This document shows, piece after piece, positions 14,876-18,334 of a DNA stretch of 26,829 bases. The DNA is from a virus. Its lineage: Duplodnaviria > Heunggongvirae > Uroviricota > Caudoviricetes. Position 1 is the stretch's first letter. Each line of letters starts with the position of its first letter. Location of the stretch: IMG/VR virus record IMGVR_UViG_3300017991_000084, positions 1 through 26,829 of that record; one strand, given 5' to 3'. Both the position numbers and the translations under genes were made by a program. The notes beneath the pieces are model-generated. The model saw only the letters and a program-made list of their open reading frames with translations. It was not told the DNA's origin and did no database searches.

Positions 14876-16255
14876 TTACAGCTGCGCCCGAACGCGAATT
14901 CCCTCAAAATTCCATTCTTTTGTGATTTCGCCGTTCTCGAAGACAGTCACCAACTGATCTTCACCACCACGATCCTGCTGCACGGTACTGAACCCATGGA
15001 CCCCACGGAGAAGCTTCAGACGCCCACGCTTAGACGCCTTGCTGCCATCAATGGGATCTTTGTAGATATCGTACCACGTGCCGTCACGCTTCTGGGCGCT
15101 ACACTTGAACGCGAACCGCTGGGTATCCCGATTGATCTTCTGGAGTAGCCCACCGCCCATGCCGAACGTGGCAATGTTCTCGACGCTCCAGCCCGCATCC
15201 GTGATAGCCACCAGGATCTCCTCGATCTTCTGCTTGTCCAGCCCATCACCCCATAGGACCTTGACCTTCGGATTGATGACCCTGTAACCCTTGCTGTTGA
15301 GTGAGCCACCAAACTTCTCCCAGAGGATCGCCAGCAATCGCAGCACCGTCTCCACCGGATCTCCACTGTCAGGACGCACCACGAACACACCGTCACGCTC
15401 CAGGATCTGCTCACGATAGGTTCCACCGATGATATTCTCCACGGTGTTGTAGATATCGAAACTGTCCGACACCACACTCAGGATGCCTGTAGGATACGCC
15501 TCCAGGAGCTGCCCGATGATCCTCTCTTCACCATCCGGCCCCAAGGAAGTCATGACGCTGTGCTCCGTCGCCGGAACGCTGAAGCCAGCTGCACCCTCGT
15601 GACCGTAGTATTCCTGTGCCGCGACGAGCGCCGCAACCGTATCCGTCCCCTTGAAGTTGATCAGGTGTGCGAGACCACCGATAGCCGCAGCCTCGACACT
15701 GGAGACACCACGGAATCCGAAGTCATGGAGCATGAAGTCCAGAGCCCCATCGTTGTCTGCGGTTTTTTCTGTAAAAACACTGATCATCTTCTTGACTTCA
15801 CGGCTCAACGTAGCCACCGTGCAAGCATGCCACACGTGACACAGAAGAGTTTCCAGGTGATTCGTCAGTGGCGCACAGTGCGGACACGTGTTCTCCACCG
15901 TCATCATGACGTTGCCCACCGGAACGACCGTACCCTCAGGGACTGCCTTGATCCGGATCGGAAGCTTGCCGTCATGGGCGAACCAGATGTGCTCCCACAT
16001 TTTTCTATTGAACAGATCCTTGCTGCCCAAGTGCTGCTCGACCAACAGCTCAGCATCATCGATCTTCGTCTGGGTGACAACCATGCCCTCCAGGTATTCC
16101 TTCAGGAGATACTGAAGGCCGAAGAACACAGTCGAATCGAACTCCGCACCCTCACGAGCCTCGAAGTAGCTGTAGACCGTTTCCGTATCCGGCTGATACT
16201 GCTGCCAATGTGCCAACTTGTAACTGTCTGTCGTCTGAATGATGTTCTTTCTCAT
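14876..16255 (-). CDS. nadV: Nicotinamide phosphoribosyltransferase (NAMPT)
   Basis: Motifs TDSYK, HDFGFRG, PATEHS, SVVSDS, RPDSGDP, WGDG, GMGGGLLQ and RDT. Start at ATG 16255 (RBS GGAGG). Confidence 0.95.
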   Translation of the reverse strand: MRKNIIQTTDSYKLAHWQQYQPDTETVYSYFEAREGAEFDSTVFFGLQYLLKEYLEGMVVTQTKIDDAELLVEQHLGSKDLFNRKMWEHIWFAHDGKLPIRIKAVPEGTVVPVGNVMMTVENTCPHCAPLTNHLETLLCHVWHACTVATLSREVKKMISVFTEKTADNDGALDFMLHDFGFRGVSSVEAAAIGGLAHLINFKGTDTVAALVAAQEYYGHEGAAGFSVPATEHSVMTSLGPDGEERIIGQLLEAYPTGILSVVSDSFDIYNTVENIIGGTYREQILERDGVFVVRPDSGDPVETVLRLLAILWEKFGGSLNSKGYRVINPKVKVLWGDGLDKQKIEEILVAITDAGWSVENIATFGMGGGLLQKINRDTQRFAFKCSAQKRDGTWYDIYKDPIDGSKASKRGRLKLLRGVHGFSTVQQDRGGEDQLVTVFENGEITKEWNFEGIRVRAQL

Positions 16256-16288
16256 AGTTCTGTCCTCCAAAACTTTGCATCAACGCAT

Positions 16289-17173
16289 CTATTTGGAATT
16301 CATGAGCATGTCGTACAACGGACGATGCTCCTCAACGATCTTCTCTCTCAAACCTTCCACCTCGATCCAAGCCAGCTCCGAAATATCATCATCCGGCAAG
16401 GGTCTGCCAAACATGTGCTTGGCCTGGAAAAAGGCTGTCACTGTGCCATCCAGCTCCCGACGATACCGCCAGTCATCGATAGGACAGCTGCCCACATACT
16501 GAGGATCTGTGATCTCGATATGGGCCTCTTCCGCGACCTCCCTGCGACATGTTGCTTCCAAGGATTCCCCAGGACTGACGAAACCACCGATGAAACGATA
16601 CAGCTGCTCATTGGGCTTCTTCGCCACCAGAAGATGAGTACACGCCTCATTCCAGATAGCCACGTCCACTGTGGGGAATGTTGTCGGATGCCGATTGTAT
16701 GCTGCCCAGACCACGCCCGCACGGAAACATGGATGTGACTTGACATGAGCGCCAAGCTTCTTCCGCACTATGGTCCCTGATTGGTACACCGACTCCTCGA
16801 TTTCTTCCGTGTCATACTTCCCTGTGTAGTGATCGATGAAGGATTCACGTCCTCCGTAGAGCACCACCGTCGCCATCGGCCCGACTAGATCTCGGATCTG
16901 CTGGTCCAGGTTCTTGCTCCACACGTCATCCGAAGGCACGTCCTTGATATACAATACGTTTACGTTCGGATACCCGTTGAGAATCATCTGCTTCCGGGAT
17001 TCAAAGTCCAGTGGGTTATTGCGCGTCACCCTCGCTGGAGATAGACCCAGAAACAGGAGCACCTTCTCGTGCTTCCGCACCACACTGTTGATCAATTGCT
17101 TGTGTCCCTCGTGCAGCTCATCCACCTGGAATCGCCCAACGAGTACACCGACTTCTGCCACTTCCTGATTCAT
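16289..17173 (-). CDS. nadM: Bifunctional NMN adenylyltransferase / Nudix ADP-ribose pyrophosphatase (NadM-Nudix, NatV-like)
   Basis: GRFQ..LHEGH (HxGH) nucleotidyltransferase motif plus Nudix box GFVSPGESLEATCRREVAEEAHI. Start at ATG 17173 (RBS AAGGAG); the ORF-track start 17233 is also possible. Confidence 0.93.
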   Translation of the reverse strand: MNQEVAEVGVLVGRFQVDELHEGHKQLINSVVRKHEKVLLFLGLSPARVTRNNPLDFESRKQMILNGYPNVNVLYIKDVPSDDVWSKNLDQQIRDLVGPMATVVLYGGRESFIDHYTGKYDTEEIEESVYQSGTIVRKKLGAHVKSHPCFRAGVVWAAYNRHPTTFPTVDVAIWNEACTHLLVAKKPNEQLYRFIGGFVSPGESLEATCRREVAEEAHIEITDPQYVGSCPIDDWRYRRELDGTVTAFFQAKHMFGRPLPDDDISELAWIEVEGLREKIVEEHRPLYDMLMNSK

Positions 17174-17222
17174 ACCTGTCTCCTTTCGCATCATCGCATC
17201 TAAAGAAACAATTGTAGGTCTC

Positions 17223-17304
17223 TTGGTCCTCATTTATTCCCCAGCAGGGAGGACTCCACGATGGCTGGGCCAGATGTCTTCATGTCACCTACTTGGAAGA
17301 CCAA
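17223..17304 (-). ncRNA. Candidate structured leader RNA (H-type pseudoknot with competing fold)
   Basis: Manual pairing: CCCAGC/GCTGGG, GTCCTC/GAGGAC, and the alternative TTGGTCTTC/GAGGACCAA. Confidence 0.35.
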
Positions 17305-17308
17305 CGAA

Positions 17309-17380
<72 letters not shown>

Positions 17381-17385
17381 GCTAA

Positions 17386-17460
17386 TCTGGGTGGGTGGAT
17401 TCGAACCACCGACATCTCGGTTCCAGGCCGAGTAGGCTGACCAAACTGCCCTACACCCAG
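17386..17460 (-). tRNA. trnP: tRNA-Pro(TGG), atypical loop CC-TGG-AA
   Basis: Full cloverleaf CTGGGTG/CACCCAG with A73; anticodon stem CTCGG/CCGAG. Confidence 0.85.
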
Positions 17461-17464
17461 TCAA

Positions 17465-17538
17465 TCTCTGTGGCTGGATTCGAACCAGCGACTTCTCGGC
17501 CCCAAACCGAGCGACATACCAAGCTTGCCTACACAGAG
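17465..17538 (-). tRNA. trnP: tRNA-Pro(TGG), canonical loop
   Basis: CTCTGTG/CACAGAG with A73; loop TT-TGG-GG. Confidence 0.92.
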
Positions 17539-17645
17539 CCTATGTATCCTTCCCGAACAAGCTCGTCCCATTTCCGTTCGACAGAAAAATGGCGATACTC
17601 GATCAAGCAGTGATCGAACCCAGCCGGATACTCAGCTGGCACCAA

Positions 17646-17716
17646 CAGATCCTCAAAGATTCGAACTCTGACCCTACGGGTTGGAACCGCAGATGCTACC
17701 GTTACACCAAGGACCT
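17646..17716 (-). tRNA. trnW: tRNA-Trp(CCA)
   Basis: AGGTCCT/AGGATCT with G73; loop TT-CCA-AC. Confidence 0.9.
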
Positions 17717-17805
17717 GTGTATTCACTTTTCAAATCAGAGTAACCTAATCAGCCGTCCCCAGTCCACCACTGGTCACCAACCTTTCGGTTACTCCCTAGG
17801 TGGAA

Positions 17806-17878
17806 TCGGAACACCTGGGATCGAACCAGGAATCTCGCGGTTATCGGCCGCGCGCTCTACCAGTTGAGCCATGCTCCG
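17806..17878 (-). tRNA. trnI: tRNA-Ile(GAT), atypical loop CC-GAT-AA
   Basis: CGGAGCA/TGTTCCG with A73; D-arm GCTC/GAGC; anticodon stem CGCGG/CCGCG. Confidence 0.88.
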
Positions 17879-17886
17879 TCACATAA

Positions 17887-17915
17887 AGTATACACTCAAC
17901 TACGCATGGATGCAA
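17887..17915 (-). promoter_or_regulatory. Sigma70-like promoter for the tRNA/NAD-salvage cluster
   Basis: TTGCAT-N17-TATACT, ending 8 nt before the first tRNA. Confidence 0.8.
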
Positions 17916-17926
17916 GAAAAGTTCGC

Positions 17927-18334
17927 CTATTTCTCAGATTTTGCCAATAATCTATCGATTACGGGCCTCAAACGAGGAATATCATCCACTGTCTCACAGT
18001 AGACCACCGGAATCCCGGCCTCAATCGCTGCATCGATCTCACGCTTCATCCCACCTGAAATGTAACTCTCAGGGGCAAAGATCACGATGAAGTCACGCTT
18101 CTTGAGGATGATGATATCCGTCTTCAAGACCACGTCCTCAGACAGATCGTGCTCAAAGAACGCAGTCATGACAAACTCATTGTGCTCTGCTGGCACATAG
18201 AAATCCACCTCTGGGAACGCTACCCGAAGCTGCTTAGCGAACTCAATAGCCAGCTGCATGTTGGCCAGCTCATCATCCTTTGTCGCCTTTGCGCCCAACG
18301 AACCACGGATCGGATGACTCACATACACTCTCAT
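17927..18334 (-). CDS. Nucleoside 2-deoxyribosyltransferase-like (DUF4406-type) Rossmann protein
   Basis: VYVSHPIRG...DIIILKKRDFIVIF....SGGMKREIDAAIEAGIPV follows the NDT-like pattern (S.G...E...A...GIPV). Confidence 0.7.
   Translation of the reverse strand: MRVYVSHPIRGSLGAKATKDDELANMQLAIEFAKQLRVAFPEVDFYVPAEHNEFVMTAFFEHDLSEDVVLKTDIIILKKRDFIVIFAPESYISGGMKREIDAAIEAGIPVVYCETVDDIPRLRPVIDRLLAKSEK

Follow-up and report, generated by a model that had tools for sequence, protein, structure and literature searches.

Phage reconstitution of nicotinamide adenine dinucleotide (NAD+) by the NARP2 pathway defeats Thoeris, DSR, SIR2-HerA, and similar defenses (bioRxiv 10.1101/2024.02.11.579819), and no account of how phages regulate it was found in the literature searched. 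In Escherichia coli, the NARP2 operon overproduces NAD+, consumes phosphoribosyl pyrophosphate (PRPP), and is toxic (bioRxiv 10.1101/2024.02.11.579819); given this cost and toxicity under free expression, regulation would be useful. Which RNA might provide it is the question raised by a 26,829-nt stretch of phage DNA (here, the window; positions 1 to 26,829 of IMG/VR virus record IMGVR_UViG_3300017991_000084), part of a 90.8-kb virus record, in which the NAD salvage genes nadM and NAMPT follow a tRNA array and every gene lies on the minus strand. A preliminary description, made from the letters of the window, had proposed that an H-type pseudoknot directly upstream of nadM is a riboswitch for NAD+ or nicotinamide mononucleotide (NMN). 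Here, we report that this pseudoknot is probably a set of helices arisen by chance, or at most private to one lineage, and not the control element of NAD salvage; that role probably belongs to a hairpin with a tandem GAUGC core, which is conserved, is tied to NAD salvage genes, covaries, and takes part in alternative pairings.

The pseudoknot and the insertion that holds it

17226..17269, minus strand: H-type pseudoknot candidate (from the sequence, enumeration, and shuffles)
17223..17304, minus strand: alternative 9-bp closing helix, 17304-17296 with 17231-17223 (from the sequence)
17203..17306, minus strand: lineage-specific 104-nt insertion holding the entire pseudoknot candidate (from alignments with loci L001, L006, L008, and L029 and a source-sample contig)

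Read on the minus strand, the letters contain the helices that had been described. S1 (CCCAGC, 17269-17264, with GCTGGG, 17245-17240) and S2 (GTCCTC, 17254-17249, with GAGGAC, 17231-17226) are joined by loops of 9, 3, and 8 nt, the A-rich L3 being GAATAAAT; the alternative helix pairs TTGGTCTTC (17304-17296) with GAGGACCAA (17231-17223) over 9 bp with one G-U, and AGGTG and CATCT are able to pair. The nadM leader starts directly after tRNA-Met, and when H-type knots whose two Watson-Crick stems each have 6 bp or more were enumerated in the 135-nt spacer between tRNA-Met and nadM, exactly one was returned, the knot proposed. Such knots were present in 21 of 2,000 dinucleotide shuffles of the spacer (~1%) and in 6 of 1,188 overlapping 135-nt tiles of the window (2 of 594 on the minus strand, 4 of 594 on the plus strand), so a few are expected per window by chance. 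Minimum free energies (MFE) were no better than those of shuffles (z = −0.65 for 82 nt; z = −0.33 for the 144-nt leader). Watson-Crick stems of 6 bp or more number five in the spacer versus 1.6 expected (P ~0.03), a count equaled by 4% of window tiles. By these measures, the pseudoknot is only weakly more than chance. GAGGAC overlaps ATG 17233, as had been noted; that ATG is not where nadM begins, since relatives start at the equivalent of 17173.

Rfam 15 (NAD+-I, NAD+-II, and preQ1 models included) was searched with cmscan, over the whole window at gathering scores and over 17100-17400 at E values up to 10. No family matched the pseudoknot, the permissive scan returning the tRNA and noise only, and no match to either NAD+-I or NAD+-II was obtained in the leaders of four relatives. 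The preQ1-I riboswitch is the smallest H-type pseudoknot aptamer, with an A-rich 3' tail and a fold whose conservation and covariation extend over many genomes. The candidate knot has the same topology on paper, along with an A-rich L3, but differs in that it exists as one sequence variant only, is absent from relatives, and has no Rfam match. NAD+-II (the pnuC motif, found before pnuC in streptococci) consists of P1, P1a, and a pseudoknot in ~50 to 65 nt, and its pseudoknot pairs with the ribosome-binding site (PMC7749635). Here, no such pairing is made: the Shine-Dalgarno sequence (17183-17180) and start codon (17173) lie at least 43 nt downstream of S2. NAD+-I (the nadA motif, found before nadA in Acidobacteria) has two tandem bulged-stem domains of ~50 nt each (PMC7708056).

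Comparison with relatives (the loci encoding the closest NadM proteins, supplemented by a metagenome scan for the leader) placed the whole pseudoknot inside an insertion. In L006 (89% NadM identity), L001 and L029 (78%), and L008 (76%), tRNA-Met is followed by a 14-nt spacer and then by the same conserved leader. The insert is carried by this phage and L005 (95%) only. In L005, the entire spacer is letter-identical, with zero differences across 17323-17126 although DNA nearby is ~2% different; because the sole other copy is identical, S1 and S2 lack the covariation that would be expected in homologous loci. Five relatives are without the segment. Two further relatives, L034 (86%) and L007 (80%), carry different inserts at the same site, unrelated to that of the window or to each other and without such a knot. 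Homology among the three inserts was considered on account of a likeness by eye between window and L007 and was rejected, local alignment scores being 19 to 20 against 17.5 ± 3.3 for shuffled sequences.

The site is also polymorphic within the source sample, relatives carrying 11 to 14 nt there: a contig from the probable source-sample run joins 17202 to 17307 via 11 other letters, which match the short spacer of L029, and a second run skips 17208-17306. No variant within the insert was listed for sequencing runs X2 and X3, a result that falls short of proving identity. The 14 nt adjoining tRNA-Met resemble the ancestral short spacer, with which they agree at 9 of 14 positions by our count, and the 5' strand of the alternative helix looks like a displaced copy of that spacer. 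HNH (HNH_3) endonuclease genes were observed between tRNA-Pro and tRNA-Met in relatives (L008:1574-1984; in L029 and L039 just upstream of tRNA-Met); their presence amid the tRNAs marks the array as mosaic and indel-prone, which fits three unrelated inserts after tRNA-Met. The 196-nt run without differences from L005 (17126-17323) stands out against a difference between the two phages of 4.7% overall and 16% some hundreds of bases upstream, which suggests a mosaic exchange of the segment.

Other origins or roles for the insert were tried and set aside. ARAGORN and the Rfam tRNA model (E up to 10) found no tRNA remnant in 17203-17308; no promoter or terminator was found on the relevant strand in 16900-18100; and pairing of the insert with the GAUGC core as an anti-motif (best duplex, −10.5 kcal/mol) was no stronger than in shuffles (−10.9 ± 2.4 kcal/mol).

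Lying wholly inside an insertion at an indel hot spot that close relatives lack, the pseudoknot is very unlikely to be a riboswitch. The insert is absent in relatives, no Rfam model matches, no energy signal is present, and the real ribosome-binding site is left untouched, so the proposal is unsupported. This is a useful negative, in that a pseudoknot attractive on paper sits in dispensable, indel-prone DNA.

Conservation, gene association, and covariation of the tandem-GAUGC hairpin

17176..17211, minus strand: tandem-GAUGC hairpin copy 1, nadM leader (MFE −10.1 kcal/mol, z = −2.41; covariance model R1, 54.2 bits, E = 9e-12)
16265..16298, minus strand: tandem-GAUGC hairpin copy 2, NAMPT leader (from a pattern search; MFE −9.5 kcal/mol, z = −1.70)

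Copy 1 begins ~15 nt downstream of the pseudoknot candidate. Its outer stem (17211-17202 with 17185-17176, 10 bp) covers the Shine-Dalgarno GGAG (17183-17180), and its core, GATGC-GAT-GATGC (17200-17188), forms an inner helix between 17198-17196 and 17189-17187. In copy 2, the outer stem (16298-16292 with 16271-16265) reaches over the beginning of the Shine-Dalgarno GGAGG (16268-16264), and the nadM stop codon TAG (16291-16289) overlaps the first base of the core, GATGC-GTT-GATGC (16289-16277). The nadM leaders of the window clade have in common the arrangement AGATGC-NN-TGATGC-(N)-AAAGGAG, placed immediately ahead of the start codon, and the core also occurs in the 33-nt nadM-NAMPT gap of the window and of every relative.

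Searches at increasing scale tied the core to NAD salvage genes. Within the 90.8-kb genome, GATGCNNNGATGC occurs exactly twice, once at the nadM and once at the NAMPT Shine-Dalgarno sequence, in each case immediately 5' of it and in sense orientation (reversed control, 0). Scanning metagenomes with a 19-base pattern gave 31 exact matches, 15 of them at nadM, NAMPT, or NAPRTase ribosome-binding sites and the remainder about the estimated chance number; the same pattern in 596 Gb of cellular genomes gave 10 matches, a chance-level frequency, with none adjoining NAD genes. In total, 41 distinct instances linked to NAD genes (before nadM, NAMPT, or NAPRTase) were collected, with NadM 43 to 100% identical, so that, as in a riboswitch-like leader, one conserved domain is tied to one pathway. 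Covariance model R1 produced 43 matches (41 distinct) in 175 kb, all on the sense strand at previously identified nadM, NAMPT, or NAPRTase leaders, and in five further phage records (634 kb), the core-containing matches were only leaders of these three genes. Two extra R1 matches in a complete 170-kb record lacked the core and were judged false. All eight IMG/VR carriers have the core in sense orientation ahead of nadM, NAMPT, or both, and their NadM identities go as low as 43%, a divergence at which unconstrained intergenic DNA would be randomized. A different core, GG(N)ATAGA(N)CC, was absent from the NAD leaders of the window and of ~150 loci. Neither the element (E up to 10) nor the long leaders described below found a match in Rfam, and full-text literature searches returned nothing relevant on phage NAD riboswitches, NARP2 regulation, or the motif.

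By pattern, the core was also found without a following NAD-related gene in L021/L030, L037, L124, and L032/L036. The copies at L021:1579-1622, L030:586-629, and L037:4102-4145 combine a perfect core with an outer stem that pairs and are followed by a 29-amino-acid open reading frame (ORF) or by no ORF; they are either chance matches or the element used in another context.

Unconstrained folding gave the same two-tier hairpin in nearly all 41 distinct instances. It spans ~36 nt: beyond the outer stem comes a small internal loop, with (N)A-GA in its 5' strand and AA in its 3' strand, and then an inner helix capped by an NNNGAU loop; the core reads GAUGC-NNN-GAUGC. The inner helix has 3 bp (U3-R14, G4-C13, and C5-G12, that is, U-G-C with G-C-R). 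At C5-G12, C-G is found 38 times and U-G, U-A (a double change, in the L020 nadM leader), and C-A once each, and at U3-R14, U-A is found 26 times and U-G 15 times; the rare changes in the core thus fit the inner helix.

The outer stems vary and yet pair: CUCU/GGAG in nadM leaders and UCCAAA/UUUGGA in NAMPT leaders of the window clade, and UCCUU/AAGGA, CUCCU/AGGAG, CCC/GGG, AGCC/GGCU, ACC/GGU, GGCU/AGCC, and CCG/CGG elsewhere. Swapping the upstream strand among instances weakened the outer stem from a mean of −3.2 to −2.3 ± 0.2 kcal/mol, and none of 2,000 permutations was as good as the real pairing. In an alignment of the 43 matches fitted to R1, 86% of cells were paired versus 80 ± 0.9% in shuffles, six of the eight pairs had changed on both sides, and the covariation score was 0.32 versus 0.22 ± 0.013 (reached by 0 of 500 shuffles; slid controls, 0.05 to 0.16). 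Pairs supported by covariation, another mark of a riboswitch-like leader, are thus present in an alignment fitted to the model and also in the stems listed independently of it. In the window, the 3' end of the insertion supplies the 5' strand of the copy 1 outer stem; the insertion thus rebuilt the hairpin and did not break it, and the stem has 10 bp there versus 4 to 5 bp in relatives.

Other readings of the core itself were rejected. As a mini-ORF or decoy AUG (AUG-NNN-UGA), it has no preceding Shine-Dalgarno sequence and frames are not kept; a K-turn and a symmetric GA/UU/AG mini-helix both conflict with R14 being A in most copies and with the L047 variant.

Expression platforms and candidate readers of the hairpin

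Most leaders use the Shine-Dalgarno region itself as the 3' strand of the outer stem, so that closure of the hairpin conceals that region. A second arrangement is found in the nadM leaders of L027, L015, L026, L136, and L135, where a near-consensus promoter is followed by the hairpin ~125 nt before the start codon and an intrinsic terminator stands just before the Shine-Dalgarno sequence (that of L136 is called by a terminator scan). The 5' strand of the terminator is complementary to CCAGAUGC-NNN-GAUGCA, and the MFE structures of L027 and L136 are long antiterminator helices. NNN covaries with the terminator 5' strand (U-A in L027 versus A-U in L015 and L136; G-C versus A-U in L026), and the same terminator column covaries with the terminator 3' strand (A-U, U-A, and C-G). 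Closed hairpin, antiterminator, and terminator are mutually exclusive, three ways. Expression platforms with mutually exclusive folds are therefore present in two forms, sequestration of the Shine-Dalgarno sequence and the five antiterminator/terminator leaders.

Separately, in L046:1685-1795 and L045:1690-1800, the hairpin precedes nadM at ~95 nt from the start codon; downstream of it in L046 come GGTGAG, 8 nt, an ATG-TAA start-stop, and then a tract of pyrimidines with complementarity to the real Shine-Dalgarno sequence. This arrangement looks like a third expression platform.

We infer both that an effector binds the hairpin and what that effector may be. It would hold the hairpin shut, hiding the ribosome-binding site and leaving the cistron untranslated; in the long leaders, the core would otherwise pair with the 5' half of the terminator as antiterminator, and a shut hairpin would free the terminator. 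On both platforms, bound would mean off, with the NAD genes on when NAD+ is low, as would fit end-product feedback on a costly pathway. The ~36-nt hairpin before the NAD salvage genes thus looks like an undescribed off-switch. The preliminary description had expected an NAD+-responsive leader that turns salvage on when NAD+ is low; the pseudoknot does not fill this role, and the broader idea survives with the tandem-GAUGC hairpin as its candidate. As a conserved element before each NAD salvage cistron, with two platforms that would both be off when bound, the hairpin is a concrete and easily testable candidate regulator.

Some observations weigh against assigning control to the hairpin and nothing to the insert. 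The insert is 100% identical in L005 amid diverged DNA and on its own is more self-complementary than shuffles (five stems, P ~0.002), which leaves room for a private function. The core is carried by only 8 of the 80 IMG/VR nadM loci found with a NadM profile, and R1 has no match in the NAMPT-carrying records of KVP40-like Vibrio phage VS1, Pantoea phage Phynn, and an uncultured megaphage. The most conserved hairpin positions never vary and so are silent on pairing, pairs were counted on an alignment that had been fitted to the model structure, and shuffle tests are inflated by relatedness among the sequences. A Shine-Dalgarno sequence usually makes up the 3' strand of the outer stem and on its own favors pyrimidine-rich partners, though the stems without one (AGCC/GGCU, ACC/GGU, and GGCU/AGCC) speak against this bias being the whole explanation. 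Finally, the stem in the L137 nadM leader stops 4 nt before the Shine-Dalgarno sequence.

How far the insert could matter depends on the role given to it. A riboswitch private to this lineage, in which the pseudoknot (17269-17226) and its exclusive 9-bp helix sense NAD+ or NMN, could appeal to helices that do exist, to the rarity of the knot in shuffles, and to the identical insert in L005; it is nonetheless highly improbable, being absent at 76 to 89% NadM identity and in co-occurring variants of the source sample, unmatched in Rfam at E up to 10, undistinguished in folding energy (z of −0.3 and −0.65), accompanied by some six chance knots in window tiles, and clear of the real Shine-Dalgarno sequence and start codon, the latter set by homologues. 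We regard as unlikely, to a lesser degree, a function other than switching, either as a structured spacer shielding the 5' end of nadM mRNA after tRNA-Met processing or as the supplier of the anti-Shine-Dalgarno strand (17211-17202). The excess self-complementarity, the lack of differences from L005 across the segment, and the long outer stem provided by the 3' end of the insert speak for such a function; yet close relatives have three unrelated inserts, or none, at the same site, no promoter or terminator signal was found, and identity to L005 may reflect recent common descent, local divergence being only ~2%. That the region is coding, with ATG 17233 as the real start of a 20-residue N-terminal extension of NadM and no RNA structure at all, can be given the least credence. 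The frame is open from 17233 and GGGG stands 5 nt upstream of the ATG, but every relative begins at the 17173 position behind AAAGGAG, the extension would read through the conserved hairpin, and the equivalent frame of L007 contains a stop codon (our reading). The tandem-GAUGC hairpin is the preferred control element.

What reads the hairpin is a matter of weighing protein against metabolite. A metabolite is a possible reader, a protein has a somewhat better claim that still falls short of an expectation, and the remainder goes to something else or to no effector. Tentatively, the tandem-GAUGC hairpin may be a new, very small riboswitch class that binds NAD+ or a near precursor directly and shuts off translation or transcription when NAD+ is plentiful; its small size, fixed unpaired nucleotides, two platforms, and occurrence in many habitats fit a small riboswitch. 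It is similar in size to preQ1-I (~35 nt). NAD+-II is likewise a small leader before an NAD-related gene whose ligand-bound fold hides the ribosome-binding site (off) (PMC7749635), a logic that would hold for the hairpin too; the differences are that no covariance model matches the knot or the hairpin, that the hairpin is modeled without a pseudoknot, and that the genes here are phage nadM, NAMPT, and NAPRTase. With NAD+-I, it shares cis-regulation of NAD-related genes and a ribosome-binding site within the regulatory helix (PMC7708056), but not a model match.

Alternatively, and plausibly, if not as the expected outcome, the hairpin is a protein operator, for which NadM-Nudix would be the most economical candidate, whether by autoregulation of the enzyme or by control of the PyrR/TRAP type. 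The conserved part is ~16 fixed nucleotides and resembles a pair of GAUGC half-sites at a distance of 8 nt; every locus with the motif has nadM, whose product alone is shared by all carriers (NAMPT is sometimes replaced by NAPRTase); and the L137 hairpin abuts the Shine-Dalgarno sequence without pairing to it. PyrR and TRAP use both attenuation and occlusion of the ribosome-binding site, which also counts for an operator. PyrR binding loops, the TRAP operators, and the enzyme-autoregulated operators of ThrRS and T4 gp43 resemble the hairpin in being small conserved hairpins or repeats that stand ahead of every cistron in a single pathway, and leaders of the PyrR/TRAP type similarly combine antiterminator competition in some cases with covering of the Shine-Dalgarno sequence in others; their sequences are unrelated to the hairpin, and an RNA-binding protein is only putative here. 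Against an operator, both the outer stem and the NNN between the repeats act like structural parts and not like sites read by sequence, and the element is spread over many habitats and over phages with NadM 43 to 100% identical; computation cannot tell a protein from a ligand. On balance, a protein such as NadM-Nudix is favored by a small margin over NAD+ or a close precursor as direct ligand. Should the reader be a metabolite, the tandem-GAUGC hairpin would be a third NAD-related riboswitch class, among the smallest aptamers, in control of phage counter-defense, and the costly pathway would be made mainly when host defenses drain NAD+; if a protein reads it, the hairpin would mediate feedback by an enzyme or regulator on that pathway.

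Genes around the leaders

17309..17380, minus strand: tRNA-Met (CAU), last of a five-tRNA array (from ARAGORN; Rfam tRNA, 66.7 bits)
16289..17173, minus strand: nadM-Nudix, 294 amino acids, NMN adenylyltransferase with an ADP-ribose pyrophosphatase domain (from Pfam NUDIX and homologues)
14876..16255, minus strand: NAMPT, nicotinamide phosphoribosyltransferase (from Pfam NAMPT_N and NAPRTase)

NadM has 705 homologues, many annotated as bifunctional NMN adenylyltransferase/nudix hydrolase. Its gene starts at ATG 17173 behind AAAGGAG, and relatives all begin at the equivalent ATG (293 to 305 amino acids by gene callers). NAMPT probably starts at ATG 16255 (MRKNI..., as in all relatives) and not at TTG 16270, which opens the longest ORF. 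As in NARP2 of Vibrio phage KVP40, whose Nampt and Nmnat have an anti-defense role, adjoining genes for NAMPT and NMNAT-Nudix are carried by a phage (here, by Pfam and NadM homology); the NARP2 paper differs in covering the enzymes and their anti-defense role, not the leader RNA (bioRxiv 10.1101/2024.02.11.579819). Protein searches returned no close cultured relative, and a DNA search of isolated phages matched tRNAs only.

Two tRNA-Pro(UGG) genes lie side by side in the window (17386-17538); L006 has one, the other being replaced by an unrelated 107-nt spacer. The operons of L135 to L140 include extra NAD genes, namely a second small Nudix gene after nadM and NAPRTase replacing NAMPT, and that of L140 also has an NAD synthase gene (PF02540); in these operons, the hairpin is seen only at nadM, NAMPT, and NAPRTase.

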